Both the position numbers and the translations under genes were made by a program. A DNA stretch of 64,000 nt from Escherichia coli (lineage in GTDB: Bacteria > Pseudomonadota > Gammaproteobacteria > Enterobacterales > Enterobacteriaceae), in the NCBI RefSeq assembly GCF_048403405.1, contig NZ_CP183129.1. One strand, given 5' to 3'. Each line of letters opens with the position of its first letter. Positions within the stretch are counted from its first letter, which is position 1. Of the stretch, positions 1 to 20,897 are shown piece by piece. The notes under the pieces were generated by a model. The model saw only the letters and a list, made by a program, of their open reading frames with translations, did no database searches and was not told where the DNA came from.

Positions 1-1556
1 CCTGCGCCCGCGTCGCCATTAACCTTTCCTCGCCGCCGAAGCAAATCTCGGCGCTGACCACTCTGAGCCACCAGCAGGAGGCGGAAATTCGCCAGCTTGA
101 GCGCGAGCTTCGCATCGGGCTGCGTACCAACACCTCACGGATGACCGAGGTGCTGGTGCAGTACGATGAAACGCTGACGGCGCTGGATGAACTGGAAGCG
201 GCCTGGCATCAGCAGCAGGCGCTGGTCCGGGAGATTATCGCGCTGCGCCAGCAGTTGCTGGGCGTGGCAGAAGACGATGCGGCGTCGTTGCCGGACGCAG
301 ATGCCGCGGAGGATACGCCGCCAGAGTCAGAGTCAGAGTCAGAGTCAGAGTCAGAGTCAGAGTCAGAGTCAGAACAGGATAATACCGGTGCCGTACCGGC
401 TGATGAGGCCGACAGAGAACAGCCGGAAGAGACCGCTGAAACAGTTTCCCCGGTACAGCGGCTGGCCCAGCTCACTGCCGAACTGGACGCCCTGCATAAC
501 GACCGGTTGCTGGTCTCCCCGCACGTCGATAAAAAACAGATTGCGGCGGTGATTGCCGAATGGACCGGCGTGCCGCTCAACCGCCTGTCGCAGAATGAAA
601 TGTCGGTCATCACCGACCTGCCGAAATTGCTGGGCGACACCATCAAAGGCCAAGACCTGGCGATTGCCAGCCTGCATAAGCATCTACTGACCGCACGCGC
701 CGACCTGCGTCTTCCGGGACGCCCGCTCGGTGCGTTCCTGCTGGCTGGCCCCAGCGGTGTGGGTAAAACCGAAACCGTCCTGCAACTGGCAGAGCTGCTC
801 TACGGCGGTCGCCAGTACCTGACCACCATCAATATGTCCGAATTCCAGGAGAAACACACCGTCTCGCGGCTGATTGGTTCGCCTCCGGGCTACGTTGGCT
901 ACGGTGAAGGCGGCGTACTGACCGAAGCGATTCGCCAGAAACCCTACTCGGTAGTACTGCTCGATGAAGTGGAAAAAGCGCACCCGGATGTGCTCAACCT
1001 GTTCTACCAGTCGTTCGATAAGGGCGAAATGGCAGACGGTGAAGGCCGCCTGATTGACTGCAAAAATATCGTCTTCTTCCTGACGTCCAACCTCGGCTAC
1101 CAGGTAATAGTCGAGCACGCCGATGACCCGGAAACCATGCAGGAAGAACTGTATCCGGTGCTGGCCGACTTCTTCAAACCTGCCCTGCTGGCGCGTATGG
1201 AAGTGGTGCCGTATCTGCCGCTGTCGAAAGAGACGCTCGCCACCATTATCGCCGGAAAACTGGCCCGTCTGGATAACGTGCTGCGCAGTCGCTTTGGTGC
1301 AGAAGTGGTCATTGAACCGGAAGTGACGGACGAAATCATGAGCCGCGTCACCCGCGCGGAAAACGGCGCGAGGATGCTGGAATCGGTCATCGATGGCGAC
1401 ATGCTACCGCCGCTCTCGCTGCTGCTGTTGCAGAAAATGGCGGCTAACACGGCGATTGCCCGGATTCGGTTGTCGGCGGTGGACGACGCATTTACGGCAG
1501 ACGTGGAAGATGCTCAGAACGACGAGTCCGTCACAAAGGATGAAACGGTTTTATGA
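1..1556 (+). CDS. clpV: T6SS AAA+ ATPase ClpV/TssH, C-terminal ~518 codons (5' end lies outside the window)
   Basis: Reading frame is open from position 3 to the TGA at 1554-1556. Translation carries the second AAA+ module (Walker A LLAGPSGVGKTE, Walker B VVLLDEVEKAHPDV) and a Clp-type C-terminal domain. Confidence 0.85.
   Translation, partial: CARVAINLSSPPKQISALTTLSHQQEAEIRQLERELRIGLRTNTSRMTEVLVQYDETLTALDELEAAWHQQQALVREIIALRQQLLGVAEDDAASLPDADAAEDTPPESESESESESESESESEQDNTGAVPADEADREQPEETAETVSPVQRLAQLTAELDALHNDRLLVSPHVDKKQIAAVIAEWTGVPLNRLSQNEMSVITDLPKLLGDTIKGQDLAIASLHKHLLTARADLRLPGRPLGAFLLAGPSGVGKTETVLQLAELLYGGRQYLTTINMSEFQEKHTVSRLIGSPPGYVGYGEGGVLTEAIRQKPYSVVLLDEVEKAHPDVLNLFYQSFDKGEMADGEGRLIDCKNIVFFLTSNLGYQVIVEHADDPETMQEELYPVLADFFKPALLARMEVVPYLPLSKETLATIIAGKLARLDNVLRSRFGAEVVIEPEVTDEIMSRVTRAENGARMLESVIDGDMLPPLSLLLLQKMAANTAIARIRLSAVDDAFTADVEDAQNDESVTKDETVL
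324..371 (+). repeat. Perfect hexanucleotide tandem repeat (GAGTCA)x8 inside clpV, encoding (Glu-Ser)8
   Basis: Eight identical GAGTCA units read directly from the sequence, in frame with clpV and followed by GAA CAG. Confidence 0.95.
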
Positions 1557-2296
1557 GCAGGTTGCGCGTTTTCCGGCAGACAGGATGGTTTATCGCGGGC
1601 CTGATGACGGGCTTACCCGCCACTGCCGCGCCCGCAGAAACATCGTCAATGGCCGGTGTGGCGGTCGCCGTCGCCACCACGACCCCGCCGGATGCGACAG
1701 CCACGTCACAGGCCATGCAGTCCTGTCGGCGGGAGTCCGCGGCGCTGGAGCGGCTTGACTGCTATGACCGCCTGCTGGCACCGCTGTCCCCGTCAGGGTT
1801 TGACGGGGCGCTGGTCAAAGCCGGTTTTGTGGGCGAGGCCTGGACCCGCGCCACAGAGCAGGAAAAACGTCGCGAGGGCAACACCACAGAACTGCTGGTG
1901 ACGCAGGTGCCGGGGGAGCGCCCGACGGTGGTGATAACCACCCCGGCTATCGGCCATGTTCCGCCGCGCCCGGTGCTGATGTTCAGTTGCGTGGACAATA
2001 TCACCCGGATGCAGGTGGCGCTGATGCACCCTCTGGATGTCCATGATATCGCCGTCACTCTGAATGCCGACAGCCGGGCATTGCGTAGCCACTGGTTTGT
2101 GCGCGAGAACGGCACCCTGCTGGAGTCCAGCCGGGGGCTGTCCGGGATTGATGAAATTAAGCAACTGTTCGGCGCAAAAACGCTGACAGTGGATACCGGC
2201 GCAGATAACGCCGCAGGAAAGCTGACCTTTAACATTGACGGGCTGGCAAGGGCGATTGCCCCCCTGCGCGTTGCCTGCCACTGGGCGGGAGAATAA
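1553..2296 (+). CDS. T6SS-associated VasI-family protein (secreted/periplasmic, N-terminal signal peptide)
   Basis: ATG at 1553 overlaps the clpV stop (ATGA). N-terminal hydrophobic signal-like segment, then an Ala/Thr/Pro-rich tract. Position between clpV and tssA matches vasI in vas-type clusters. Family assignment is from recalled architecture, not a search. Confidence 0.55.
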   Translation: MSRLRVFRQTGWFIAGLMTGLPATAAPAETSSMAGVAVAVATTTPPDATATSQAMQSCRRESAALERLDCYDRLLAPLSPSGFDGALVKAGFVGEAWTRATEQEKRREGNTTELLVTQVPGERPTVVITTPAIGHVPPRPVLMFSCVDNITRMQVALMHPLDVHDIAVTLNADSRALRSHWFVRENGTLLESSRGLSGIDEIKQLFGAKTLTVDTGADNAAGKLTFNIDGLARAIAPLRVACHWAGE

Positions 2297-2300
2297 AAAT

Positions 2301-3713
2301 ATGGCAATGGACTTACGCGATCCGAATGTCTGGATAACGCACCTGCTGGAAAACCTGCCGGAAGAAAAACTGGCATCGGCGCTGAAAGATGACAACCCGG
2401 ACTGGGAGTATATCGACGGCGAAATCGTCAAACTGGGATCTCTGGCCCACAGTCAACTGGATATCCCGGAACTCCAGCGCCGGGGGCTGGTCATTCTGGC
2501 TTCGGAGAGTAAGGACTTTCGTCTGCTGGCGCATCTGCTGAGAACCCTGCAACACGCCGGTGATCCTCATCTCGCATTGCGCCTGCTGGCGCTGTATGTG
2601 GAGCATTACTGGTCGGTGGCTGCGCCGCAGAATATGGCACATAAAAAACGCTTTGCCAGCCAGGTCATTAAACGCTTCGAAACAGGTATTGAAGGCTTTT
2701 CACAGAACGCCGCCACAGCGCAGCGCGACGCGCTGTCAGGGGAACTGGCGAAACTGGCGCAGTGCTGGCAGTCACATAACGCCCCGGAACTGGCACTGGC
2801 TACCGATGATCTTTTTGCCCTGTACCAGCGTGCGTTTAATCGTGCGGCACCGGCTCCTGCCCCCACTCCGGCGGCCTCCGATAGTTCACGACAGACCACC
2901 GCCACGTCTGAAAGCGGCGTGACGCAACCCAGTGCTCCGGCTCCCCAAATCGCCATCGACAGTCACGACGACAAAGCCTGGCGCGACACGCTGTTAAAAG
3001 TGGCGGCTATTTTATGTGAACGCCAGCCGGACTCGCCGCAGGGCTATCGCCTGCGCCGCCATGCCCTGTGGCAATCCATCACCAGTACACCCCAGGCGGA
3101 AAGCGATGGACGTACCCCATTGGCTGCGGTCTCTGCCGATATGGTGGCGGATTACCAGTCCCGGCTTGCCAGCGCGGATATGGCGCTGTGGCAGCAGGTT
3201 GAGAAAAGCGTATTGCTGGCTCCTTACTGGCTGGACGGTCACTGTCTTTCTGCACAGACGGCACTGCGTCTGGGTTACAAACAGGTGGCAGACACCATCC
3301 GCGATGAGGTCATCCGCTTCCTTGAGCGTCTGCCCCAGCTTACCGGGCTGCTGTTTAATGACCGCACACCGTTTCTCAGTGAGCAGACGAAACAATGGCT
3401 GGCAGCTTCGCCCGACGGCAAAGTTGCACCGGTTGCGCAAATCGGTGAGGAATCGCAGGCAGCCAGAGCCTGTTTTGCTGGGCAGGGTCTGGAGGCGGCG
3501 CTGCGATATCTGGACATGCTACCCGAAGGCGATCCCCGCAATCAGTTTCACCGCCAGTACCTTGCCGCACAGTTGACGGAGGAGGCGGGGCTGATACAGC
3601 TTGCGCAGCAACAGTACCGGATGTTGTTGATGATAGGGAGTCAGATGATGGTGTCTGACTGGGAGCCATCATTACTTACGCAGCTTGAACAAAAATTCAC
3701 GGCAGAACAATAA
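2301..3713 (+). CDS. tssA: T6SS protein TssA (VasJ-like, ImpA_N-type N-terminal domain)
   Basis: ATG at 2301 just after the vasI-like stop (the tracked ORF starts further upstream at 2235). About 470 aa, lying between vasI and tssM as vasJ does. Confidence 0.7.
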   Translation: MAMDLRDPNVWITHLLENLPEEKLASALKDDNPDWEYIDGEIVKLGSLAHSQLDIPELQRRGLVILASESKDFRLLAHLLRTLQHAGDPHLALRLLALYVEHYWSVAAPQNMAHKKRFASQVIKRFETGIEGFSQNAATAQRDALSGELAKLAQCWQSHNAPELALATDDLFALYQRAFNRAAPAPAPTPAASDSSRQTTATSESGVTQPSAPAPQIAIDSHDDKAWRDTLLKVAAILCERQPDSPQGYRLRRHALWQSITSTPQAESDGRTPLAAVSADMVADYQSRLASADMALWQQVEKSVLLAPYWLDGHCLSAQTALRLGYKQVADTIRDEVIRFLERLPQLTGLLFNDRTPFLSEQTKQWLAASPDGKVAPVAQIGEESQAARACFAGQGLEAALRYLDMLPEGDPRNQFHRQYLAAQLTEEAGLIQLAQQQYRMLLMIGSQMMVSDWEPSLLTQLEQKFTAEQ

Positions 3714-3731
3714 AAGAGAACAGGAGTTTTT

Positions 3732-6700
3732 GTGTTCAGATTACCAACACCCCGACTACTCAGCGGACTCAAATCAGCCCTACGCCCGGCGATGCCCCGG
3801 TTTAAAGTCTCCGCTTTCTGGCTGCTGATACTGGCGTGGATTTTTCTGCTGGTATGGATCTGGTGGAAAGGCCCGACGTGGACGCTGTATGAAGAACAGT
3901 GGCTCAAACCACTGGCGAACCGCTGGCTGGCAACGGCGGCATGGGGGATTATCGCCCTAGTGTGGCTTACCGTCCGGATGATGAAGCGCCTGCAACAGCT
4001 TGAAAAAATGCAAAAGCAGCAGCGCGAGGAGGCCATTGATCCGCTCAGTGTGGAGCTGAACGCCCAGCAGCGTTACCTTGACCGCTGGCTGCTGCGCCTG
4101 CAACGCCATCTCGACAACCGCCGTTTCCTGTGGCAGTTGCCGTGGTATATGGTCATCGGCCCGGCGGGCAGTGGCAAAACGACACTGCTGCGCGAGGGTT
4201 TTCCGTCCGACATTATTTATGCCCCGGAGGGCGCACGCGGCGCAGAACAACGCCTGTACCTCACGCCCCATGTCGGTAAACAGGCGGTGATCTTTGATAT
4301 CGACGGCACACTCTGCGCTCCCGCTGATGCGGATATCCTGCATCGCCGTCTGTGGGAACATGCCCTCGGCTGGCTGAAAGAAAAGCGCGCGCGCCAGCCG
4401 CTGAACGGGATTATTCTGACACTCGATTTACCCGATCTGCTTACCGCAGACAAACGCCGCCGCGAACATCTGTTACAGACGCTGCGCAGCCGCTTGCAGG
4501 ATATACGCCAGCATCTTCACTGCCAGTTACCGGTTTACGTGGTACTCACCCGGCTTGATTTATTGCAGGGTTTTGCCGCCCTGTTCCAGTCACTGAACAG
4601 ACAGGATCGCGATGCAATTCTAGGGGTCACGTTCACCCGCCGCGCCCATGAAAATGATGACTGGCGAACAGAGTTGAATGCTTTCTGGCAGACATGGGTG
4701 GATCGAATGAACCTAGCGTTGCCGGATCTGATGGTCGCTCAGACTCACACCCGCGCGTCTTTATTTAGTTTTTCCCGCCAGATGCAGGGAAGCCGTGAAC
4801 CACTGGTGTCACTGCTTGAGGGTCTGCTTGACGGCGAAAATATGAACGTGATGCTGCGTGGCGTCTATCTCACCTCTTCGCTTCAGCGCGGACAGATGGA
4901 TGATATTTTCACCCAGTCTGCCGCCCGCCAATACCGGCTGGGCAATAACCCACTGGCGTCCTGGCCTCTGGTGGACACCGCACCCTATTTCACCCGTAGC
5001 CTGTTCCCGCAGGCATTACTCGCAGAGCCTAATCTGGCAACAGAAAGCCGCACCTGGCTGATGCGTTCCCGTCGCCGCCTGACGGTTTTCTCTACCACAG
5101 GAGGCGTGGCGGCACTGCTGCTCATCACCGGCTGGCATCACTATTACAACGGTAACTATCAGTCCGGCATCACCGTGCTTAAGCAGGCAAAAGCCTTTAT
5201 GGATGTACCGCCTCCGCTGGGGGAAGATGATTACGGCAACCTGCAACTGCCGCTGCTGAACCCGGTACGCGATGCCACGCTGGCCTATGGCGACTGGGGC
5301 GACCGCAGCCGTCTGGCCGATATGGGACTGTACCAGGGACGGCGTATCGGGCCTTATGTGGAACAAACCTATCTGCAACTGCTGGAGCAGCGTTACCTGC
5401 CTTCGCTGTTTAACGGGCTGGTCAAAGCGATGAACGCCGCGCCGCCGGAGAGTGAGGAAAAACTCGCCGTGCTGCGTGTGATGCGAATGCTGGAGGACAA
5501 AAGCGGACGCAATAATGAGGTGGTGAAGCAGTATATGGCAAAACGCTGGAGCGAAAAATTCCACGGCCAGCGCGATATCCAGGCACAACTGATGTCCCAT
5601 CTTGACTACGCGCTGGCTCATACTGACTGGCATGCAGAGCGTCAGGCGGGCGACGGTGATGCCATCAGCCGCTGGACGCCATATGACAAGCCTGTTGCGA
5701 CAGCACAGAAAGAACTGAGCAAACTGCCTGTCTACCAGCGAGTTTACCAGAGCCTGAAAACGCGGGCGCTGGGCGTTCTTCCTGCCGACCTCAATCTGCG
5801 TGACCAGGTAGGGCCAACTTTTGACCAGGTATTTACATCTGCCGATGATAACAAACTGGTTGTTCCACAGTTTCTTACCCGTTACGGCCTGCAAAGCTAT
5901 TTTGTAAAACAGCGCGATGAACTGGTTGAACTGACGGCGATGGATTCCTGGGTACTCAACCTCACCCGCAGCGTGAAATACAGTGACGCCGACCGCGCGG
6001 AAATCCAGCGCCAGTTGACCGAGCAGTATATCAGCGACTACACCGCCACCTGGCGGGCCGGGATGGACAATCTGAATATCCGCAATTTTGAGTCCATCGG
6101 ACAACTGACCGGGGCGCTGGAGCAGGTTATCAGCGGCGACCAGCCTTTGCAGCGGGCGCTGACCGTGCTGCGTGACAACACACAGCCAGGCGTCTTTTCT
6201 GAAAAACTCTCTGCCAAAGAGCGGGATGAGACCCTGGCAGAGCCGGATTACCAGTTACTCACCCGCCTCGGGCATGAATTCGCCCCGGAAAACAGTACCC
6301 TGACAGTACAGAAAGACAAAGAAAGCACGATGCAGGCCGTATACCAGCAGCTCACCGAGTTACACCGCTACCTGCTGGCAATCCAGAACGCGCCTGTACC
6401 AGGGAAATCGGCGCTGAAAGCCGTGCAGTTAAGGCTTGATCAGAACAGCAGCGATCCAATATTCGCCACCCGCCAGATGGCAAAAACACTGCCTGCTCCG
6501 CTCAACCGCTGGGTAGGCAGGCTGGCTGACCAGGCCTGGCATGTGGTGATGGTGGAAGCCGTTCACTATATGGAAGTGGACTGGCGCGACAGCGTGGTGA
6601 AACCGTTTAACGAGCAACTGGCAAATAACTATCCGTTTAATCCACATTCTGCACAGGATGCCTCACTGGATGCCTTCGAACGATTCTTTAAACCAGATGG

Positions 6701-7256
6701 CATACTGGATACCTTCTACCAGCAGAACCTAAAGCTGTTTATCGACAATGACCTGAGTCTGGAGGATGGCGATAACAACGTCATTATTCGCGAAGATATT
6801 ATTGCGCAACTGGAAACCGCGCAGAAAATCCGTGACATATTCTTCAGCAAACAGAACGGTCTGGGAACATCCTTTGCCGTGGAAACGGTATCGCTTTCCG
6901 GCAACAAACGCCGCAGCGTACTGAACCTTGACGGTCAGTTAGTCGATTACAGCCAGGGCCGTAACTATACCGCCCATCTGGTCTGGCCTAACAATATGCG
7001 CGAAGGCAACGAAAGCAAACTGACGCTGGTTGGTGCCCGCGGCGGCGCACCGCGCAGTATCAGCTTCAGCGGGCCGTGGGCTCAGTTCCGCCTGTTCGGG
7101 GCCGGACAGCTGACCGGAGTACAGGATGGCAACTTTACCGTGCGCTTTAGTGTGGACGGTGGCGCAATGACCTACCGCGTGCATACCGACACGGAAGATA
7201 ACCCGTTCAGCGGTGGGTTATTCAGCCAGTTTGGCCTGTCAGACACACTGTACTGA
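3732..7256 (+). CDS. tssM: T6SS membrane-complex protein TssM (IcmF/VasK family)
   Basis: GTG start at 3732 preceded by AGGAG at 3722-3726. 1174 aa with N-terminal transmembrane segments and a Walker A motif (GPAGSGKTT). Confidence 0.9.
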   Translation: MFRLPTPRLLSGLKSALRPAMPRFKVSAFWLLILAWIFLLVWIWWKGPTWTLYEEQWLKPLANRWLATAAWGIIALVWLTVRMMKRLQQLEKMQKQQREEAIDPLSVELNAQQRYLDRWLLRLQRHLDNRRFLWQLPWYMVIGPAGSGKTTLLREGFPSDIIYAPEGARGAEQRLYLTPHVGKQAVIFDIDGTLCAPADADILHRRLWEHALGWLKEKRARQPLNGIILTLDLPDLLTADKRRREHLLQTLRSRLQDIRQHLHCQLPVYVVLTRLDLLQGFAALFQSLNRQDRDAILGVTFTRRAHENDDWRTELNAFWQTWVDRMNLALPDLMVAQTHTRASLFSFSRQMQGSREPLVSLLEGLLDGENMNVMLRGVYLTSSLQRGQMDDIFTQSAARQYRLGNNPLASWPLVDTAPYFTRSLFPQALLAEPNLATESRTWLMRSRRRLTVFSTTGGVAALLLITGWHHYYNGNYQSGITVLKQAKAFMDVPPPLGEDDYGNLQLPLLNPVRDATLAYGDWGDRSRLADMGLYQGRRIGPYVEQTYLQLLEQRYLPSLFNGLVKAMNAAPPESEEKLAVLRVMRMLEDKSGRNNEVVKQYMAKRWSEKFHGQRDIQAQLMSHLDYALAHTDWHAERQAGDGDAISRWTPYDKPVATAQKELSKLPVYQRVYQSLKTRALGVLPADLNLRDQVGPTFDQVFTSADDNKLVVPQFLTRYGLQSYFVKQRDELVELTAMDSWVLNLTRSVKYSDADRAEIQRQLTEQYISDYTATWRAGMDNLNIRNFESIGQLTGALEQVISGDQPLQRALTVLRDNTQPGVFSEKLSAKERDETLAEPDYQLLTRLGHEFAPENSTLTVQKDKESTMQAVYQQLTELHRYLLAIQNAPVPGKSALKAVQLRLDQNSSDPIFATRQMAKTLPAPLNRWVGRLADQAWHVVMVEAVHYMEVDWRDSVVKPFNEQLANNYPFNPHSAQDASLDAFERFFKPDGILDTFYQQNLKLFIDNDLSLEDGDNNVIIREDIIAQLETAQKIRDIFFSKQNGLGTSFAVETVSLSGNKRRSVLNLDGQLVDYSQGRNYTAHLVWPNNMREGNESKLTLVGARGGAPRSISFSGPWAQFRLFGAGQLTGVQDGNFTVRFSVDGGAMTYRVHTDTEDNPFSGGLFSQFGLSDTLY

Positions 7257-7266
7257 GGAGGCAGGG

Positions 7267-8619
7267 ATGAATAGTAACGGACTGACACAAACTATCGTTA
7301 CCGGCAGTGACCCGCGCGGGCTGCCGGAATTCAGCGCCATCCGCGAGGAAATAAACAAAGCCAGCCATCCGTCACAGCCTGAGCTGAACTGGAAACTGGT
7401 GGAGTCGCTGGCGCTGGCGATTTTTAAAGCCAACGGTGTGGATTTACACACCGCCACCTACTATACGCTTGCCCGGACACGGACACAGGGACTGGCGGGA
7501 TTCTGCGAAGGTGCGGAACTGCTGGCGGCAATGGTAAGCCACGACTGGGATAAATTCTGGCCGCAGGGCGGTCCGGCGCGTACTGAAATGCTGGACTGGT
7601 TTAACTCCCGAACCGGCAATATTCTGCGTCAGCAAATCTCCTTTGCGGAACCCGATCTGCCACTGATCTACCGCACAGAGCGGGCATTGCAGCTTATCTG
7701 CGACAAGCTTCAGCAGGTGGAGCTGAAGCGCGTTCCGCGCGTGGAGAATCTGCTCTATTTTATGCAGAACACGCGTAAGCGGCTTGAACCCCAGCCGAAG
7801 AGTAACGTTGAAAACGCCGTACAGACCACGGTTAGAACACTGATTTATGCCCCGGAAACAACGGCTTCCTCCACGCCAGAAGCGGTAGTGCCTCCCCTGC
7901 CCGACCTGCCTGAGATGAAAGTAGAAGTGCGCAGTCTGTCAGAGAATCCCCCACAGGCCAGTGTGATGAAGCAAGGCAGTACGGTAAGAGGGTTTATCAC
8001 GGGGATCGCCTGTTCAGTGGCTGTCGCCTCAGCATTGTGGTGGTGGCAGGTCTATCCGGTGCAACAGCAACTGTTACAGGTTAACGACACCGCGCAGGGC
8101 GCAGCAACGGTGTGGATGGCCTCACCTGAACTAGAAAACTATGAGCGCAGGCTACAACAGCTTCTTGGCGTCTCCCCGGTACAACCGCTGGAAACCGGGA
8201 TGCAGATGATGCGTGTTGCCGACAGTCGCTGGCCGGAAAGCCTGCAGCAGCAGCAGGCCTCGACACATTGGAATGAAGCACTCAAAACCCGCGCACAGAG
8301 TAGCCCGCAGTTGCGTGGCTGGTTGCAGACCCGTCAGGACTTACATGCTTTTGCAGATCTCGTGATGCGGCGCGAGAAAGAGGGACTAACCCTTTCCTAT
8401 ATCAAAAATGTCATCTGGCAGGCGGAGCGGGGACTGGGGCAGGAAACACCCGTTGAGTCTCTGTTGACGCAGTACCAGGATGCCCGTGCGCAGAAGCAGA
8501 ATATAGATGCGCTGGAAAAACAAATTAATGAGCGACTCGAAGGCGTGTTAATCCGCTGGCTGCTGCTGAAGAATAACGTCATGCCAGAGGCGGCAACCGG
8601 GACCACGGCCGAAAAATAA
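7267..8619 (+). CDS. VasL-like T6SS accessory protein (ImpA_N-related N-terminus, one central transmembrane helix)
   Basis: ATG at 7267 after GAGGAGG, 10 bp after the tssM stop. Predicted TM segment ITGIACSVAVASALWWW. Position after tssM corresponds to vasL. Confidence 0.6.
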   Translation: MNSNGLTQTIVTGSDPRGLPEFSAIREEINKASHPSQPELNWKLVESLALAIFKANGVDLHTATYYTLARTRTQGLAGFCEGAELLAAMVSHDWDKFWPQGGPARTEMLDWFNSRTGNILRQQISFAEPDLPLIYRTERALQLICDKLQQVELKRVPRVENLLYFMQNTRKRLEPQPKSNVENAVQTTVRTLIYAPETTASSTPEAVVPPLPDLPEMKVEVRSLSENPPQASVMKQGSTVRGFITGIACSVAVASALWWWQVYPVQQQLLQVNDTAQGAATVWMASPELENYERRLQQLLGVSPVQPLETGMQMMRVADSRWPESLQQQQASTHWNEALKTRAQSSPQLRGWLQTRQDLHAFADLVMRREKEGLTLSYIKNVIWQAERGLGQETPVESLLTQYQDARAQKQNIDALEKQINERLEGVLIRWLLLKNNVMPEAATGTTAEK

Positions 8620-8642: not shown

Positions 8643-9125
8643 ATGGCAAATATGAGTTATTTATCTTTGAGTGGAGAGACACAAGGGCTGATTTCAGCAG
8701 GTTGCTCAACGCTTGATTCTGTCGGAAACAAAGCACAGCCAGAACATAAAGATCAGATCATGGTTTATGCGTTAATGCATTCCATCTCAAGAAGTCAAAA
8801 TGTCAATCATCATGAATTAATTATCACCAAACCGGTTGATAAATCCTCACCATTGCTGGCAAAAGCACTTAGTGACAATGAAAAAATGGTAACATGTGAA
8901 TTTATACTCTACCGAACCAGTAAAGCGGGTATTTACCAGCCTTATTATAAAATAAACCTGTCAAAAGCCCGAATATCAAGTATTGATTTTGTCACACCGC
9001 ATGCTGTCCTGGAAAAAGAACTGGAGCCACAGGAGAGAATTGCCTTTATTTATGAAGATATTTCCTGGGAGCATACGTTAGCCGGTACGAATGCAATGAG
9101 TAAATGGCAGGATCGTGTACAGTAA
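8643..9125 (+). CDS. hcp: Hcp-family T6SS tube protein (divergent, encoded in AT-rich DNA)
   Basis: 160 aa, AAGGAG RBS at 8631-8636. Length and motif pattern (SSPLL-KA, Y-I-L-A-I, IAF-YE-ISW) resemble Hcp. Confidence 0.75.
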   Translation: MANMSYLSLSGETQGLISAGCSTLDSVGNKAQPEHKDQIMVYALMHSISRSQNVNHHELIITKPVDKSSPLLAKALSDNEKMVTCEFILYRTSKAGIYQPYYKINLSKARISSIDFVTPHAVLEKELEPQERIAFIYEDISWEHTLAGTNAMSKWQDRVQ

Positions 9126-9168
9126 TTTACTGTAATAACATAATAAATTACTATTGCGGAGAGATATA

Positions 9169-10083
9169 ATGGCTGGTTTAAGGAATAATAACAACACACA
9201 GAATGCACAGTGGGCTGATTATGTGGGTGACATTCTTCGGGGGGCTCAACCGATAAACCAGCTAGTACCTCAGCACCCTTATCTTAACGACGTCCCACTC
9301 ATTGATGAATTAAGGCGTCAGAACACTCATCATGTTATTCTCTTGACACTTGATGTTGCAAAAAAAATACTCAGCTCAATAACATCATTTGATTACATTC
9401 ATTTTATCACTACACATCCTTCAGGTATAAAAGATACACTCGCTTGGTTAGTTAACGCGGGTAAATTAATGACTGAGTTTGATGGAAATGGGAAAATTAT
9501 ATTTAACTTTAATACCTTAAAGTATACAAAAGCAAGTTACTTTGAAATACTTGGAGAGAAATATATAAAAATTACAACATCCAGCCCCTGGCTTTTAGAA
9601 AAGCTCGGTAAATATATTTTCTCTTCACGAGCGCCTCAAGTTCTGGAACTCGCTATTGGCTGGCGAGGAGCTTTATCTGAATCAATAAAAGGAGTTAAGT
9701 TCTGTATCTGGTTTTCAGTAGCCTGGAGAACCATAGAATTTATTATGAGTTCAGAGCGAGATCTGGTTAATTTTCTTGGTGATTTTTCAATGGATGTGGC
9801 CAAAGCAGTGATTGCAGGCGGTGTTGCAACTGCTATTGGAAGCCTGGCTTCTTTTGCCTGTCTTAGTTTTGGCCTTCCAGTAATTCTTGTAGGAGGAGCA
9901 ATTTTACTTACAGGGATAGTGTGTACAGTTGTTTTAAATGAAATCGATGCTCAATACCATTTATCAGAAAAATTAAAAGATGCAATTAGAGATGGACTAA
10001 AACGGCAACAGGAACTTGATAAATGGAAAAGGGAAAACATGACTCCATTTATGTATGTTCTTAACACTTCCCCCGTGATATGA
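9169..10083 (+). CDS. Hypothetical protein; candidate Hcp-linked T6SS effector with C-terminal glycine-zipper hydrophobic helices
   Basis: ATG at 9169 with GGAG 7 nt upstream (tracked ORF begins at a TTG at 9154). AT-rich codon usage matching hcp. C-terminal segment VAKAVIAGGVATAIGSLASFACLSFGLPVILVGGAILLTGIVCTVVL. Function is inferred from context only. Confidence 0.55.
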   Translation: MAGLRNNNNTQNAQWADYVGDILRGAQPINQLVPQHPYLNDVPLIDELRRQNTHHVILLTLDVAKKILSSITSFDYIHFITTHPSGIKDTLAWLVNAGKLMTEFDGNGKIIFNFNTLKYTKASYFEILGEKYIKITTSSPWLLEKLGKYIFSSRAPQVLELAIGWRGALSESIKGVKFCIWFSVAWRTIEFIMSSERDLVNFLGDFSMDVAKAVIAGGVATAIGSLASFACLSFGLPVILVGGAILLTGIVCTVVLNEIDAQYHLSEKLKDAIRDGLKRQQELDKWKRENMTPFMYVLNTSPVI

Positions 10084-10247
10084 GGATTAACTATGCGTTT
10101 ACATGTTAAATTGAAAGAGTTTTTTTCGATGTTTTTTATAGCCATATTATTTTTCCCTGCATTCAATGCTTCTTTATTTTTTACCGGAATTAGGTGATGC
10201 TGCCAACTTACTGATTTAGTGTATGATGGTGTTTTTGAGGTGCTCCA

Positions 10248-10523
10248 GTGGCTTCTGTTTCTATCAGCTGTCCCTCCTGTTCAGCTACTGACGGGGTGGT
10301 GCGTAACGGCAAAAGCACCGCCGGACATCAGCGCTATCTCTGCTCTCACTGCCGTAAAACATGGCAACTGCAGTTCACTTACACCGCTTCTCAACCCGGT
10401 ACGCACCAGAAAATCATTGATATGGCCATGAATGGCGTTGGATGCCGGGCAACCGCCCGCATTATGGGCGTTGGCCTCAACACGATTTTCCGCCATTTAA
10501 AAAACTCAGGCCGCAGTCGGTAA
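10248..10523 (+). CDS. insA: IS1 InsA (transposition inhibitor / N-terminal part of transposase)
   Basis: 91-aa ORF beginning [43 protein letters not shown], inside IS1. Confidence 0.9.
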
Positions 10524-10945
10524 CCTCGCGCATACAGCCGGGCAGTGACGTCATCGTCTGCGCGGAAATGGACGAACAGTGGGGATACGTCGGGGCTAAA
10601 TCGCGCCAGCGCTGGCTGTTTTACGCGTATGACAGGCTCCGGAAGACGGTTGTTGCGCACGTATTCGGTGAACGCACTCTGGCCACACTGGAGCGTCTTC
10701 TAAGCCTGCTGTCGGCCTTTGAGGTCGTGGTATGGATGACGGATGGCTGGCCGCTGTATGAATCCCGCCTGAAGGGAAAGCTGCACGTAATCAGCAAGCG
10801 TTACACTCAGCGAATTGAGCGGCATAACCTGAATCTGAGACAACATCTGGCAAGGCTGGGACGGAAGTCACTGTCGTTCTCAAAATCGGTGGAGCTGCAT
10901 GACAAGGTCATCGGGCATTATCTGAACATAAAACACTATCAGTAA
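10442..10945 (+). CDS. insB: IS1 InsB reading frame (expressed as InsAB' transposase by -1 frameshifting)
   Basis: -1 frame ORF overlapping the end of insA, translation typical of IS1 InsB ([21 protein letters not shown]...). Confidence 0.88.
10496..10505 (+). promoter_or_regulatory. IS1 programmed -1 ribosomal frameshift site TTTAAAAAAC
   Basis: A6C motif lies in the insA/insB overlap; the IS1 frameshift mechanism is established knowledge. Confidence 0.8.
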
Positions 10946-11484
10946 GTTGGAGTCATTACCCGGAATTAAACCTCTATATTCAATAATAAAAGGCTCCACG
11001 GAAATATTTTATGATTGGAGAATGTTGATTCTATGCTTCGGTTTCATATCGTTTTCCTTGTTAAATATTCATGTAATTTTACTAACAATAATAAAATCAT
11101 TCTTAATAAAAAAAACAAAGGTAATCAATTTCGCCACAGACATAACAATACAGCTAACTCTTATATTTTTACTAATAGCTATCGTAATAGCACCTTTAAT
11201 AGCTCCTTTTGTCACAGGATATGTCAATGCTAATTGTCACCCCTGCGGTAATAACACGGGGATTTTCCCAGGAGCAATCTATATTAAAAATGGCATAAAA
11301 TGTAATAATGAACATATTTCTCGCAAGGAAGATTAAGCAGTTAAATAATTAAATATTCTAAAACAAACAGTTTTTAACGCCGGATTCCATGTCCTTTCTT
11401 GCACTGTCTTTGTCAGGAACAATTTCTTATGCAAAGAATTTTGTATTATTGCCGCCAGAAATTCCTGGCGGCAGATATAATTTA

Positions 11485-12270
11485 TTATTGATAGCGGTTA
11501 ACCAAATCTTTTACCATCGCTTTATAGGTCTTTTGCTTAAGTTGTATGATTTGCTGCTCTGTCATATCAGTCGTACTGGCTTCATTCTTGCCGGGAAATG
11601 GTGGAAGCACTTTATATTCATAATTCACCGGCGACCAGGCAGCCCACTCACCTGTAGCTACATCCACCAGCGTGAATCGCACCAGATAGCGCAGTGAGAT
11701 TGTGTTAGTCAGTTTTTCATTTTTATAATCGGACCATACTGTTGATTTCAGTGCAGTGTCATATTTTCCTGTCTGCAACGTATCCTGGTAAACAATAATC
11801 GCTTTCTGATGGCCTTTTGCCGCCACAAAACGTAATGCCTGCATCCAGTTCATATTTTCAGCACTGGCAACATCCTCGTTCTCATTTTTATCTTTGTTTT
11901 TGTTACAAGTCAGAGGCTTTTGTCTGTCCGGGATACCAGAGAATGTGGAAACAGTATAATATTTTCGCATCTCCTCCTGCATAATGGTTTCCGGTGCGCG
12001 ACTGCCAGACTGGACAAGTATTACGGGAGAATTGAGAGGCACACGAAACTCATCTCCTTCAAGCGCAGCCTGAATATCCTCCTCGGATACAGCCAGAGTG
12101 GTTTCATTACCGAATAAATCTTTGTCTGTCAGTTGCGGGGGAATGTTTTTATTAATATTACTTTGTGTAACTTGAACTTTTTTCTTTTTTTCATCAATAG
12201 AAGATTGAGAGGCACATCCTGCAAGCAGCGAGAATAATACACATATGCAACAAACCTTTTTTGAATTCAT
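11485..12270 (-). CDS. yafT: Lipoprotein YafT
   Basis: 261 aa with lipobox LLAGC after a signal peptide; lies next to aspV as yafT does in K-12. Confidence 0.8.
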
Positions 12271-12536
12271 AATCGGACACTCCCTCGCCTGTCATAATGA
12301 TTAGAATATTTAGCACTGATAACGGACTCTAATTATATACCCCACTTAAATAATAACAAACAAAATCAACATGAAATATACATTCATTTAATCAATATAA
12401 AATTATTCACTAAAAATATATTTAAGTTGAATGGTTCGATATCATTATTGAATTTTAATAAATGAGACAACAAGCGAGAGTTACGCACTTACGCCAGAGT
12501 AAAATCATTGAACAGAGAAATATCGTGATTTAAATG

Positions 12537-12569
12537 CAAAAAAACCGCAAAATTAAAAATTTTGCGGTT
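12537..12569 (-). terminator. Rho-independent terminator downstream of aspV
   Basis: Palindrome AACCGCAAAATT/AATTTTGCGGTT followed on the minus strand by a T-run. Confidence 0.6.
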
Positions 12570-12596
12570 CTCTGAACTCATTTTCATGAGTGAATT

Positions 12597-12673
12597 TGGC
12601 GGAACGGACGGGACTCGAACCCGCGACCCCCTGCGTGACAGGCAGGTATTCTAACCGACTGAACTACCGCTCC
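12597..12673 (-). tRNA. aspV: tRNA-Asp (GTC)
   Basis: Reverse complement reads GGAGCGGTAGTTCAGTCGGTTAGAATACCTGCCTGTCACGCAGGGGGTCGCGGGTTCGAGTCCCGTCCGTTCCGCCA. Confidence 0.97.
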
Positions 12674-12696
12674 GCGTTGTGTTCCGTTGGGAACGA

Positions 12697-12731
12697 GGCG
12701 AATATTACGGATTGCCTCACCCTTCGTCAAC
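12697..12731 (-). promoter_or_regulatory. Putative aspV promoter (TTGACG, 17-nt spacer, TAATAT)
   Basis: On the minus strand, -35 at 12725-12730 and -10 at 12703-12708, followed by a GC-rich discriminator before the tRNA 5' end. Confidence 0.5.
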
Positions 12732-12805
12732 GGTTTTTCTCATCTTTTGAATCGTTTGCTGCAAAAATCGCCCAAGTCGCTATTTTTAGCGCCTTTTACA
12801 GGTAT

Positions 12806-13537
12806 TTATGCCCGCCAGAGGCAGCTTCCGCCCTTTTTCTGCACCAGATCGAGACGGGCTTCATGTGCCGCAAGCTCTTCATCTGTCGCAAAAACAACGC
12901 GTAACTTACTTGCCTGACGCACAATGCGCTGAATTGTTGTTTCACCTTGTTGCTGTTGTGTCTCTCCTTCCATCGCAAAAGCCATCGACGTTTGACCACC
13001 AGTCATCGCCAGATAAACTTCCGCAAGGATCTGGGCATCGAGTAATGCCCCGTGCAACGTTCGTTTACTGTTATCTATTTCGTAGCGGGCACATAACGCA
13101 TCGAGGCTGTTGCGCTTACCGGGAAACATTCTCCTCGCCACCGCAAGGCTATCGGTGACCTTACAGAAGGTATTGGTCTTCGGAATATCGCGCTTAAGCA
13201 ACGAAAACTCGTAGTCCATAAAGCCGATATCGAACGCTGCGTTATGGATCACCAACTCCGCGCCGCGAATATAGTCCATGAACTCATCGGCTACTTCGGC
13301 AAACGTGGGCTTATCGAGCAAAAATTCATCGGCAATACCATGTACGCCAAAGGCTTCCGGATCCACCAGCCGATCGGGTTTGAGATAAACATGGAAGTTA
13401 TTGCCCGTCAGGCGACGGTTCACCACTTCAACGGCACCAATCTCAATGATCTTGTGGCCTTCATAGTGCGCGCCAATCTGGTTCATACCGGTGGTTTCGG
13501 TATCGAGAACGATCTGGCGTGTAATTGCAGTGCTCAT
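12806..13537 (-). CDS. dnaQ: DNA polymerase III epsilon subunit (3'-5' proofreading exonuclease)
   Basis: Translation [20 protein letters not shown]...GGSCLWRA, 243 aa. Confidence 0.97.
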
Positions 13538-13601
13538 AGCGGTCATTTATGTCAGACTTATCGTTTTACAGTTCGATTCAATTACAGGAAGTCTACCAGA
13601 G

Positions 13602-20820: not shown

Positions 20821-20897
20821 TGGCGGAACGGACGGGACTCGAACCCGCGACCCCCTGCGTGACAGGCAGGTATTCTAACCGACTGAACTACCGCTCC
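20821..20897 (-). tRNA. aspU: tRNA-Asp (GTC), distal tRNA of rrnH
   Basis: Same sequence as aspV, located just downstream of the 5S gene. Confidence 0.97.

Follow-up and report, generated by a model that had tools for sequence, protein, structure and literature searches.

yafT as the terminal gene of a vas-like T6SS island at aspV in Escherichia coli, preceded by AT-rich DNA with a predicted promoter

The stretch of Escherichia coli DNA analysed here (64,000 nucleotides, hereafter the window) opened with the distal part of a T6SS core, and the features from there to dnaQ are shown in Table 1. The T6SS was of the vas-like type (i1), with tssH, tssA, tssM, and hcp present together with vasI and vasL in the conserved order. 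The window matched strains MS 69-1 and TUM14771 at 99.9-100% identity, and the full tssB-tssM set was present in the near-identical MS 69-1. Between the T6SS core and yafT, the hcp, yafU-like, and ykfM genes occupied a variable cargo slot, which elsewhere contained three small ORFs (O157), was empty (E10), or contained DUF4225 (a metagenomic relative). The GC content was 57.7% in the T6SS core, 36.3% in the proximal module (hcp, cargo, yafT, and leader), and 51.5% in the backbone. The island is eroded in E. coli by IS1, IS3, and ISAs1. The hairpin in the gap between the convergent ykfM and yafT genes is, judging from its sequence, probably a bidirectional terminator common to both.

Table 1. 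Positions of the features between the start of the window and dnaQ
Feature	Position	Strand	Details
T6SS core, distal part: clpV/tssH 3' end, vasI, tssA, tssM, vasL	1-8619	+	ORFs, Pfam/NCBIfam, MS 69-1 annotation
Terminal hcp	8643-9125	+	Pfam T6SS_HCP, TIGR03344
yafU-like 309-aa membrane protein	9154-10083	+	ORF
ykfM, membrane protein, 155 aa when intact	10094-11336	+	Interrupted by IS1; aligned to uninterrupted MS 69-1
IS1 in ykfM	10193-10960		8-bp target duplication CGGAATTA; InsA/InsB ORFs
G+C-rich hairpin in ykfM/yafT gap	11449-11474	.	10-bp stem, 7 G-C pairs; 10 nt past the yafT stop
yafT, 261-aa lipoprotein (predicted)	11485-12270	-	Pfam PF25851 'YafT'; terminal tRNA-proximal island gene
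AT-rich intergenic DNA upstream of yafT	12271-12537	-	28.6% GC; putative target of xenogeneic (H-NS-type) silencing
Shine-Dalgarno GAGGGAG	12280-12286	-	9 nt ahead of the yafT ATG; read from sequence
Predicted yafT sigma-70 promoter	12332-12359	-	10/12 consensus match
Predicted -10 TATAAT	12332-12337	-	16-nt spacer to -35
Predicted -35 TTGTTA	12354-12359	-	16-nt spacer to -10
Upstream motif ATGAATGTA (family consensus ATGAATATA)	12379-12387	-	50 nt upstream of the yafT -10
aspV intrinsic terminator AACCGCAAAAUU/AAUUUUGCGGUU and U-tract	~12538-12573	-	Hairpin and covariation
aspV trailer, small hairpin CUCAUGAAAAUGAG	12576-12591	-	Precedes the terminator
aspV, tRNA-Asp(GUC)	12597-12673	-	ARAGORN; Rfam tRNA, 67.7 bits
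dnaQ	12806-13546	-	Directly upstream of aspV

The aspV gene is conserved backbone and anchors the variable region; across three site types (yafT-type, empty, and other T6SS), similarity to the window ended a few nucleotides beyond the aspV 3' end. The trailer and terminator (12538-12591) demonstrated an MFE of -22.9 kcal/mol (z = -5.3 versus shuffles), and RNAalifold on 7 Escherichia sequences showed 4 stem pairs with compensatory double changes and no main-stem pair broken. The hairpin with its U-tract is an intrinsic (Rho-independent) terminator by these features, compensatory changes included. It differed from CCCGAATCAGTAATGATTCGGG, the aspV terminator of empty-site and T6SS-1-type strains, and this native terminator was absent from the far island end of yafT-type genomes, the position expected for attR. 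The Rfam scan of positions 10900-12900 returned the tRNA alone and no other accepted family; a snoRNA match in the same interval was below the Rfam threshold and was dismissed. A 32-codon ORF spanning the terminator was also rejected, as its frame was broken by indels in O157 and E10.

The interval of 326 bp between yafT and aspV (12271-12596) contained 28.8% GC against a window mean of 51.6% and was the most AT-rich stretch of the window, an AT content as high being reached by only 0.14% of 326-nt windows across the 64 kb. An earlier note on this DNA had placed about 325 bp of AT-rich sequence between yafT and the tRNA terminator; the AT-richness was borne out and the extent was not, since the terminator lies inside the 326 bp and leaves about 267 bp of AT-rich DNA from there to yafT. 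The same sequence had been described as a long AT-rich leader, of which the AT-rich part stands and the transcribed leader does not: the predicted promoter lies about 55-60 nt from the yafT ATG, so most of the AT-rich DNA would be upstream regulatory or spacer DNA. In E. coli, the yafT leader occurred as two allele classes, with ~94-100% and ~82% identity to the window. Its GC content was 24-32% in Escherichia, Pseudocitrobacter, and Trabulsiella only and 43-48% in the other genera, thus the control region of yafT does not inherently need to be AT-rich. In other strains, the spacer was the start point of IS1 insertions and IS1-mediated deletions. A Fur box (AATAATGATATCGAA) considered in the spacer agreed with ~10/19 consensus positions by eye and was dropped.

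The predicted yafT promoter agrees with sigma-70 promoters in its hexamers, in a spacing within 16-18 nt, and in its kept position, and would give a 5' UTR of ~55 nt. The -10 hexamer was invariant among Escherichia, and of 24 related loci in other genera, 21 had a perfect TATAAT at 30-61 nt ahead of the ATG. The block ACAGGCGAGGGAGTGTCC at the Shine-Dalgarno was invariant or nearly so in Escherichia. Allowing no more than 1 mismatch, the upstream motif ATGAATATA occurred in 13 of the 23 loci, where it lay either 40-42 or 50-51 nt away from the -10; composition-preserving shuffles yielded 1.2 loci on average and never more than 6, the motif having been set post hoc and the sequences being related. 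The motif (ATGAATGTA in the window) is a possible regulator site. The promoter, within the ~267-bp spacer, would drive yafT, which converges on the end of the T6SS operon.

It could be argued that the AT-rich stretch is decayed junk or spacer, such as an eroded integrase gene, that has no regulatory role and leaves yafT constitutive or unexpressed. The poor conservation of the spacer within Escherichia outside the -10 region, the Shine-Dalgarno block, the terminator, and a few other short stretches speaks for this, as do the lack of any possible alignment between genera apart from the -10 hexamer, a spacer length ranging from ~220 to 1100 bp, and the disruption of the 32-codon ORF in other strains. 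The perfect TATAAT at a kept distance together with the phased upstream motif argues instead for a maintained promoter, and YafT was under strong purifying selection (75% mean column identity across genera), so yafT must be expressed in some condition. In K-12, experiments moreover showed that the silencing resides in the DNA of the locus (PMC4191405), and the absence of a regulatory role is considered improbable.

Comparison of complete E. coli genomes (n = 5426) showed the yafT leader adjoining aspV in 4136, an empty junction with yafV and aspV 98 bp apart and no yafT in 757, and other contents at the aspV site in ~530, among the alternatives being a different T6SS and a 100-kb PAI (CFT073). 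The tssM gene of the vas-like T6SS was found in at least 3010 of the 5426 genomes, and more than 1000 genomes with the yafT leader are therefore K-12-like remnants. In other genera of the Enterobacteriaceae, 30 loci with a yafT homologue were found; the T6SS beside them was the same vas-like ClpV-VasI-TssA-TssM-VasL-Hcp system and, among the 29 loci analysed, converged with yafT in at least 21; a tRNA (tRNA-Asp, -Ser, -Phe, or -Asn) lay within ~1.1 kb upstream of yafT on the same strand in 11 loci. The yafT gene is island DNA and not core genome, because empty-site strains lack it and other genera have it beside the same T6SS at different tRNA loci. Presence or absence within the species, the tRNA 326 bp away, and a base composition differing from the backbone were all found, as is typical of an island. 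The earlier proposal of an aspV-adjacent T6SS island with yafT at its proximal end was thus upheld by the comparison with K-12 and other strains, in which yafT fell inside the island content, and yafT was not universal backbone.

A core position of yafT, with the T6SS island inserted between yafT and yafV and the boundary in the ykfM/yafT gap, has nevertheless been assumed in print, the IMT5155 genome paper having GI-16 inserted between two genes that it counts as E. coli core, yafT and ramA-1 (PMC4232414). The retention of yafT in more than 1000 genomes without the T6SS core, K-12 included, and its strand opposite to the T6SS with its own predicted promoter would agree with that assignment. 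It was largely refuted by the clean 98-bp yafV-aspV junction from which yafT is entirely missing, by the absence of yafT from strains with other inserts at aspV, and by the loci of other genera, where yafT lies beside the same T6SS at tRNA-Ser, tRNA-Phe, tRNA-Asn, and non-tRNA sites. K-12 also retains ykfM and a yafU fragment, which makes its present state a deletion remnant of the island. A core origin of yafT is accordingly regarded as very unlikely.

Annotation and tblastn with integrase queries showed no integrase in the window or in the 32.9-kb island of MS 69-1, where only transposases (IS1 and ISAs1) were present, and tblastn with K-12 IntF and a Superficieibacter integrase fragment showed no remnant in the window or at any Escherichia locus. 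Repeats of the tRNA-Asp 3' end were searched for with a 24-mer allowing at most 3 mismatches, with longest exact words, and with 17-, 24-, and 30-mers; none was above chance in the window and the whole MS 69-1 island, and the longest exact match in the 32.9 kb was 10 nt, which is also the most frequent value in shuffled sequence. The tRNA-proximal end of the island is therefore without an integrase and the island without att direct repeats from the tRNA 3' end, and the earlier statement that no integrase lies beside aspV was correct over this wider search as well.

The earlier reading of an old island that has lost its integration module stands as far as these absences go; the past loss would have to be read from traces in relatives. 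In Superficieibacter, a truncated P4-type integrase with an Arm-DNA-binding domain (Pfam E = 9e-13) was located between tRNA-Asp and a yafT-like gene of 48% identity. Homologues of yafT were found at tRNA-Ser(GGA) in Citrobacter, Yokenella, Enterobacter, and Phytobacter, and repeats of the tRNA-Ser 3' end preceded yafT in four genera, the tRNA-Ser loci having 2-3 tandem 183-bp units that each start with it. Since every Escherichia locus examined was free of integrase and att traces, a lost module rests on these distant relatives. The Superficieibacter remnant could also belong to an unrelated decayed element. A candidate integrase remnant between tRNA-Asn and yafT in Atlantibacter was rejected, being a marginal tblastn match (E = 0.078) that Pfam gave no confirmation for. 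The native aspV terminator was kept in Pseudocitrobacter and in T6SS-1-type E. coli, so those insertions lie downstream of the tRNA, unlike classical integration at the tRNA 3' end; in E. coli ETEC1738 (T6SS-1), the insert started ~50 bp after the tRNA.

A different account holds that the island never had its own integrase here and that aspV-yafV is a recombination hotspot, which receives alternative cassettes (two unrelated T6SSs, a PAI, or nothing) through homologous recombination between core genes on either side, tRNA adjacency being a property of the hotspot. At least three mutually exclusive contents occurred within the same flanks, and the 3' codons of yafV differed between island-bearing and empty strains, which places the breakpoints inside core genes. 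Alleles were deeply divergent (yafT leader ~82% and tssM ~77% identical to the window), the O157 yafT was mosaic at its 3' end, att repeats were lacking in the island, and Blondel et al. likewise reported SPI-20 at aspV without direct repeats (PMC2907695). One yafT-T6SS unit found at four tRNA species in a constant orientation is, on the other side, difficult to explain unless a tRNA-targeting integrase acted at some point, and relatives carry integrase and att traces (this study; PMC2907695). As a description of how the locus behaves today the hotspot account fits well, and it leaves room for an origin through an integrase; that no integrase was ever involved here is possible and the less probable account.

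On the preferred reading, the island was originally delivered, most likely, by a tRNA-targeting tyrosine (P4-type) integrase situated between the tRNA and yafT, and the integrase and att repeats would later have been erased in Escherichia. The locus would now be a fixed hotspot between aspV and yafV, whose alternative contents would be swapped by homologous recombination and trimmed by IS1-, IS3-, and ISAs1-mediated deletions.

The interval 12271-12596 is AT-rich, horizontally acquired DNA by its 28.8% GC and by the island status seen in the comparison. Published results on other strains support an H-NS-type silencing of the yafT region. In K-12, yafT is situated within a tsEPOD by which an inserted lac reporter is silenced, and the reporter is de-repressed when the tsEPOD is replaced (PMC4191405); transcriptional propensity at K-12 yafT was low in every medium tested (PMC9561378), and the T6SS genes at aspV in EHEC were up ~60-fold in an hns mutant (PMC5363993). 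The tsEPOD papers explicitly leave the bound protein unnamed (PMC4191405, PMC9561378), and H-NS is put forward here as the likely silencer. The high-affinity H-NS consensus (TCGATAAATT, at most 2 mismatches) had no match in the yafT leader. The low-GC proximal module (hcp, cargo, yafT, and leader; 36% GC) would be coated by H-NS-type nucleoid proteins, and in laboratory conditions this coating would silence both the T6SS and a yafT promoter that is good in itself. Low GC and horizontal acquisition are shared with other H-NS- or tsEPOD-silenced DNA, the K-12 locus and the EHEC T6SS being silenced (PMC4191405, PMC5363993).

Taken together, the region is probably best described as the aspV-proximal end of a vas-like (subtype i1) T6SS island, consisting of the terminator, ~267 bp of 29%-GC DNA with a predicted sigma-70 promoter, and yafT as the last gene, for which an integrase-mediated origin and silencing are proposed. 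The island has been named T6SS2, EHEC O-island 7 (OI-7), LF82/ExPEC PAI I-aspV, APEC/ExPEC GI-16, and AGI-1 in the literature (PMC5363993, PMC2941450, PMC4232414). The window copy shared the dnaQ-aspV ... yafV site, the order tssBC-EFG-tagH-tssJKL-clpV-vasI-tssA-tssM-vasL-hcp followed by yafT, and the far end with Rhs/VgrG and ISAs1, and nothing essential differed; IS1 in ykfM and the yafU/ykfM cargo in place of the O157 cassette were its differences. The literature treats yafT as a cluster member or a core flank, whereas the comparison here puts it in the island.

Salmonella SPI-19 at the tRNA-Ser gene serX belongs to the same T6SS lineage as OI-7 and is homologous in architecture and tRNA-proximal (PMC2907695), and yafT homologues occur in Salmonella serovars. 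SPI-19 keeps a scar with 15 nt of the serX 3' end (PMC2907695); no repeat comparable to this scar or to the 183-bp units of the tRNA-Ser loci was present in the E. coli island at aspV. Salmonella SPI-6 and SPI-20 and the Sci-1-like T6SS-1 of E. coli share the aspV hotspot, a T6SS cargo, and the absence of an integrase by the tRNA, but represent unrelated T6SS lineages without yafT.

YafT of the window was 94% identical to K-12 YafT and showed a signal peptide and a lipobox (LLAG-C, agreeing with L-[AS]-[GA]-C) whose Cys was invariant in 20 homologues, as predicted for a bacterial lipoprotein. The residue at +2 sets lipoprotein sorting under the Lol rule, and the Ala at this position of YafT suggests sorting to the outer membrane. 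Pfam/NCBIfam searches of YafT, YkfM, and YafU returned no family, PF25851 being seen in precomputed annotations only. The structural model of YafT (mean pLDDT 62, moderate) may resemble outer-membrane lipoproteins of the LptE/PelC/LpoB/CsgG type, with which YafT shares only 8-15% sequence identity, and it differed from these in a long helix added at the C-terminus and a disordered loop inside the chain. Distant members of the YafT family had contexts too short or not linked to a T6SS, and the T6SS link is therefore claimed for the enterobacterial subfamily only. It is tentatively suggested, and held as rather doubtful, that YafT may have an LptE/PelC-like fold and serve the enterobacterial vas-like T6SS as its own accessory lipoprotein in the outer membrane, where it might, for instance, help or gate transport across that membrane. 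On this view yafT would have stayed at the island tip next to the tRNA while the island integrated independently at tRNAs four times or more, and its conserved promoter (the perfect -10 and the helically phased ATGAATATA) may answer a regulator countering H-NS silencing.

The junction is real and ordinary: the aspV T6SS island, the absence of an integrase and direct repeats, the H-NS repression, and the silent yafT chromatin have all been published, and the observation as first made matters little, being known biology. Modest additions to it are yafT as a conserved terminal gene of the vas-like T6SS, a predicted yafT promoter conserved across genera, and a putative LptE/PelC-like fold for YafT. 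For annotation, yafT belongs to the island, though some genome papers assume that it is core. Members of the uncharacterised family PF25851 (YafT) show a tight and widespread link to a single T6SS lineage, and their putative fold would be typical of channel-associated lipoproteins of the outer membrane, which makes yafT a cheap knockout candidate in T6SS2-positive E. coli, and the conserved promoter and motif may be used to seek the signal that activates a normally silent T6SS.

The window was E. coli chromosome, reversed relative to K-12, with a backbone running from the rrnH operon (marked by aspU and tRNA-Ala/Ile) through dkgB to mltD, gloB, yafS, rnhA, dnaQ and aspV. To the left of aspV lay yafT, whose product (lipobox LLAG/C) was 94% identical to K-12 YafT, followed by ykfM, a gene for a 309-aa yafU-like membrane protein, and the terminal hcp; farther left, a vas-like T6SS was represented by its distal part (vasL, tssM, tssA, vasI and the 3' end of clpV). 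The ykfM gene, starting at 10094, was split by an IS1 flanked by the 8-bp target duplication CGGAATTA (10185-10192 and 10961-10968), and the 129-aa ORF at 10947-11336 was only its 3' part. E. coli TUM14771 (NZ_CP128875.1) matched the window at 100% identity over the yafT leader and over 2 kb of tssM. The 326-bp spacer between yafT and aspV had a GC content of 28.8%, within the lowest 0.14% among 326-nt stretches of the 64 kb, and the junction of yafT, AT-rich DNA and aspV described in the earlier note was thus real.

Features of the yafT-aspV junction and of the loci compared with it
Feature	Coordinates	Strand	Remark
aspU	20821-20897		second tRNA-Asp
dnaQ	12806-13546	minus	
aspV	12597-12673	minus	tRNA-Asp(GUC)
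Spacer/leader	12271-12596		
Small hairpin	12576-12591		directly after tRNA
aspV terminator	about 12538-12573		strong, intrinsic
32-codon ORF	12489-12587	minus	probably no gene
Motif ATGAATGTA	12379-12387		window copy of ATGAATATA
yafT sigma-70 promoter match	12359-12332		TTGTTA-16-TATAAT, about 55-60 nt upstream of ATG
yafT	11485-12270	minus	261-aa lipoprotein
G+C-rich hairpin	11449-11474		3' of yafT, between convergent ykfM and yafT
IS1	10193-10960		complete, 768 bp, inside ykfM
Cargo slot, window	8643-11336		yafU-like 309-aa protein and YkfM
Cargo slot, O157	L006:7029-8377		three small ORFs, one LprI/DUF1311-like
Cargo slot, strain E10	L008:8541-8881		nothing
Cargo slot, metagenomic relative	L045:1056-2145		DUF4225 and 108-aa ORF
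O157-type yafT	L006:8855-9655		
183-bp units, Citrobacter werkmanii	L019:9157-9580		tandem
183-bp units, Phytobacter	L024:6911-7301		tandem
183-bp units, Yokenella	L014:8950-9156		tandem
183-bp units, Enterobacter asburiae	L021:9571-9832		tandem

The complete island was obtained from E. coli MS 69-1, which was 99.9% identical to the window. Its 32.9 kb followed the order yafV, ISAs1 remnants, Rhs, VgrG, Hcp, tssB to tssM-vasL-hcp, yafU, ykfM, yafT and aspV, and contained no integrase. A census of 5426 complete E. coli genomes showed the yafT leader adjoining aspV in 4136, in two allele classes (identity about 94-100% and about 82%), and tssM of the vas-like T6SS in at least 3010. An empty junction, with yafV and aspV 98 bp apart and a different "native" terminator, was found in 757 genomes (e.g., ST131, AVS0662), while more than 1000 carried K-12-like deletion remnants, K-12 itself retaining yafT, ykfM and a yafU fragment. 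IS1-mediated deletions began in the AT-rich spacer in two strains; in strains other than that of the window, IS1 copies at this AT-rich end had removed yafT and the entire island. ETEC1738, like some other E. coli, had an unrelated Sci-1-like T6SS (TagK/TagJ/TssEFG/ImpA type) abutting aspV, and CFT073 had a 100-kb PAI there. The latter (PAI-CFT073-aspV; L043, L044) ended at aspV with DUF4942/CbtA/antirestriction genes, shared with the T6SS island an ISAs1 remnant beside yafV, and had an integrase annotated at neither end; these features suggest that it replaced a former T6SS island. All site states shared one left edge, where similarity to the window ended a few nt beyond the tRNA 3' end. Therefore, yafT is accessory DNA and the island/backbone boundary lies at aspV, as the earlier note had proposed. 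Genome comparison did not bear out a published description that sets the island between yafT and ramA-1 as core-genome genes (PMC4232414).

The interval between hcp and yafT was a variable cargo slot, and its contents may represent Hcp-linked effector/immunity cassettes. O157-type YafT was 85% identical overall, with complete divergence over the last ~45 residues, and DNA similarity to about 1000 genomes ended at the same point (window about 11485-11616), so that a recombination breakpoint lies inside yafT. This breakpoint coincided with a different cargo cassette.

Homologues of YafT, with identities of 65-96% and a column identity averaging 75% in a set of 20 sequences, were found in E. albertii, E. 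fergusonii, E. whittamii, Citrobacter, Salmonella, Enterobacter, Lelliottia, Pseudocitrobacter, Buttiauxella, Hafnia, Trabulsiella, Phytobacter, Yokenella and Atlantibacter. Of the 29 loci analysed, at least 21 had yafT converging with this end of the T6SS (ClpV-VasI-TssA-TssM-VasL-Hcp), and in 11 loci a same-strand tRNA gene lay within about 1.1 kb upstream: tRNA-Asp (Escherichia, Pseudocitrobacter, Superficieibacter), tRNA-Ser(GGA) (Yokenella, C. werkmanii, E. asburiae, Phytobacter), tRNA-Phe (Lelliottia, Trabulsiella) or tRNA-Asn (Atlantibacter). This arrangement agrees with Salmonella SPI-19, which is homologous to EHEC OI-7 and is a T6SS island beside tRNA-Ser (serX) retaining a scar with 15 nt from the 3' end of the tRNA (PMC2907695). 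Given this synteny and tRNA adjacency across genera, yafT is the conserved terminal gene of this vas-like T6SS lineage on its tRNA-proximal side.

No repeat of the tRNA-Asp 3' end was present in the window or the complete island (24-mers, up to 3 mismatches); the longest exact word, 10 nt, equalled the most frequent length in shuffled sequence. A native aspV terminator displaced to the far end of the island was not found, and tblastn with integrase queries gave no match in any Escherichia locus examined. Traces occurred in relatives only. In Superficieibacter electus, tRNA-Asp and a yafT-like gene flanked a truncated integrase of the P4 type (Arm-DNA-binding domain, Pfam E = 9.4e-13), and Atlantibacter had a degenerate integrase look-alike between tRNA-Asn and yafT, with a tblastn E of 0.078 and no confirmation from Pfam. 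The tRNA-Ser(GGA) loci contained two or three tandem ~183-bp units, each opening with the last ~20 nt of the tRNA and its terminator; these are att-like scars, and they were absent at E. coli aspV. The most economical reading is the one offered earlier, an old island that lost its integration module: the ancestral order would be tRNA-int-yafT-T6SS, with integrase and att sites erased in Escherichia. A pure recombination hotspot at the aspV site of E. coli is a less probable but credible alternative; it accounts well for the shared flanks and divergent alleles but leaves one unit with four tRNA species unexplained. Under the ancestral-integration reading, the locus would now be reshaped by IS-mediated deletions and by homologous recombination in its conserved flanks.

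The small hairpin and the aspV terminator folded with an MFE of -22.9 kcal/mol (z = -5.3), and four double compensatory changes kept the terminator stem paired across Escherichia species. The earlier note had placed ~325 bp of AT-rich DNA between yafT and this terminator; the length and composition held, but the terminator lies inside the stretch and about 267 bp remain. The native terminator of empty-site strains was also kept in ETEC1738 (L040:5830-7084, compared with L004 and L039), and Pseudocitrobacter had a native-type homologue in front of yafT; yafT-type Escherichia thus carry a terminator version of their own, distinct or diverged, with a 17-nt extra hairpin. The 32-codon ORF started in the tRNA trailer hairpin and crossed the terminator; it was intact in the window and K-12 and frame-shifted by changes in U-tract length in O157 and E10 types, and is thus unlikely to be a gene. 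The yafT -10 hexamer was invariant within Escherichia, and a perfect TATAAT preceded the start of yafT by 30-61 nt in 21 of 24 related loci of other genera, with the rest of the spacer not alignable between genera. In 13 of 23 loci the motif ATGAATATA stood at a distance of 40-42 or 50-51 nt from the -10, against a mean of 1.2 and a maximum of 6 loci in composition-preserving shuffles. It is a lead only, having been defined post hoc on related sequences, and no known regulator could be matched to it. Its two spacings differed by one helical turn (equivalents in loci L010-L035), and the window copy formed part of an inverted repeat, ATGAA-N7-TTCAT.

GC content was 36% in the proximal module (from hcp to the leader, without the IS1), 58% in the T6SS core and 51.5% in the backbone. 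In K-12 the yafT locus is among four tsEPODs that silenced an inserted lac promoter, and its replacement led to de-repression, the authors naming no bound protein (PMC4191405); transcriptional propensity at this site was low in every medium tested (PMC9561378), and EHEC aspV T6SS genes rose about 60-fold in an hns mutant (PMC5363993). By analogy with these data, H-NS-type silencing of the yafT-aspV region appears well supported. No high-affinity H-NS motif was found in the yafT leader, and in many other genera the leader was not AT-rich (43-48% GC). A genomic SELEX peak of the RpoS holoenzyme has been reported in the 3' part of K-12 yafT (K-12 coordinate 238050, about window 11550; PMC5493296).

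YafT matched no family in local Pfam or NCBIfam copies and was PF25851 "YafT" in precomputed annotation. The family was small (205 representatives at E <= 1e-3 among 1.84 billion), and its distant members showed no visible T6SS link. The AlphaFold2 model, with a mean pLDDT of 62 and 70-90 in the core, was disordered at residues 1-61 and 115-140; it had an alpha/beta core, putatively of LptE/PelC-like fold, and a long C-terminal helix. Together with strong conservation and T6SS synteny, the model suggests that YafT may have an accessory role in the vas-like T6SS.

Overall, the earlier interpretation was essentially right, and the locus it describes is already well documented: OI-7, PAI I-aspV, T6SS2, aspV as a T6SS hotspot that lacks direct repeats, repression by H-NS and the tsEPOD at yafT. 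Only the assignment of yafT to the island, as the conserved gene at its end, the putative LptE/PelC-like fold and the conserved promoter architecture are mildly new.
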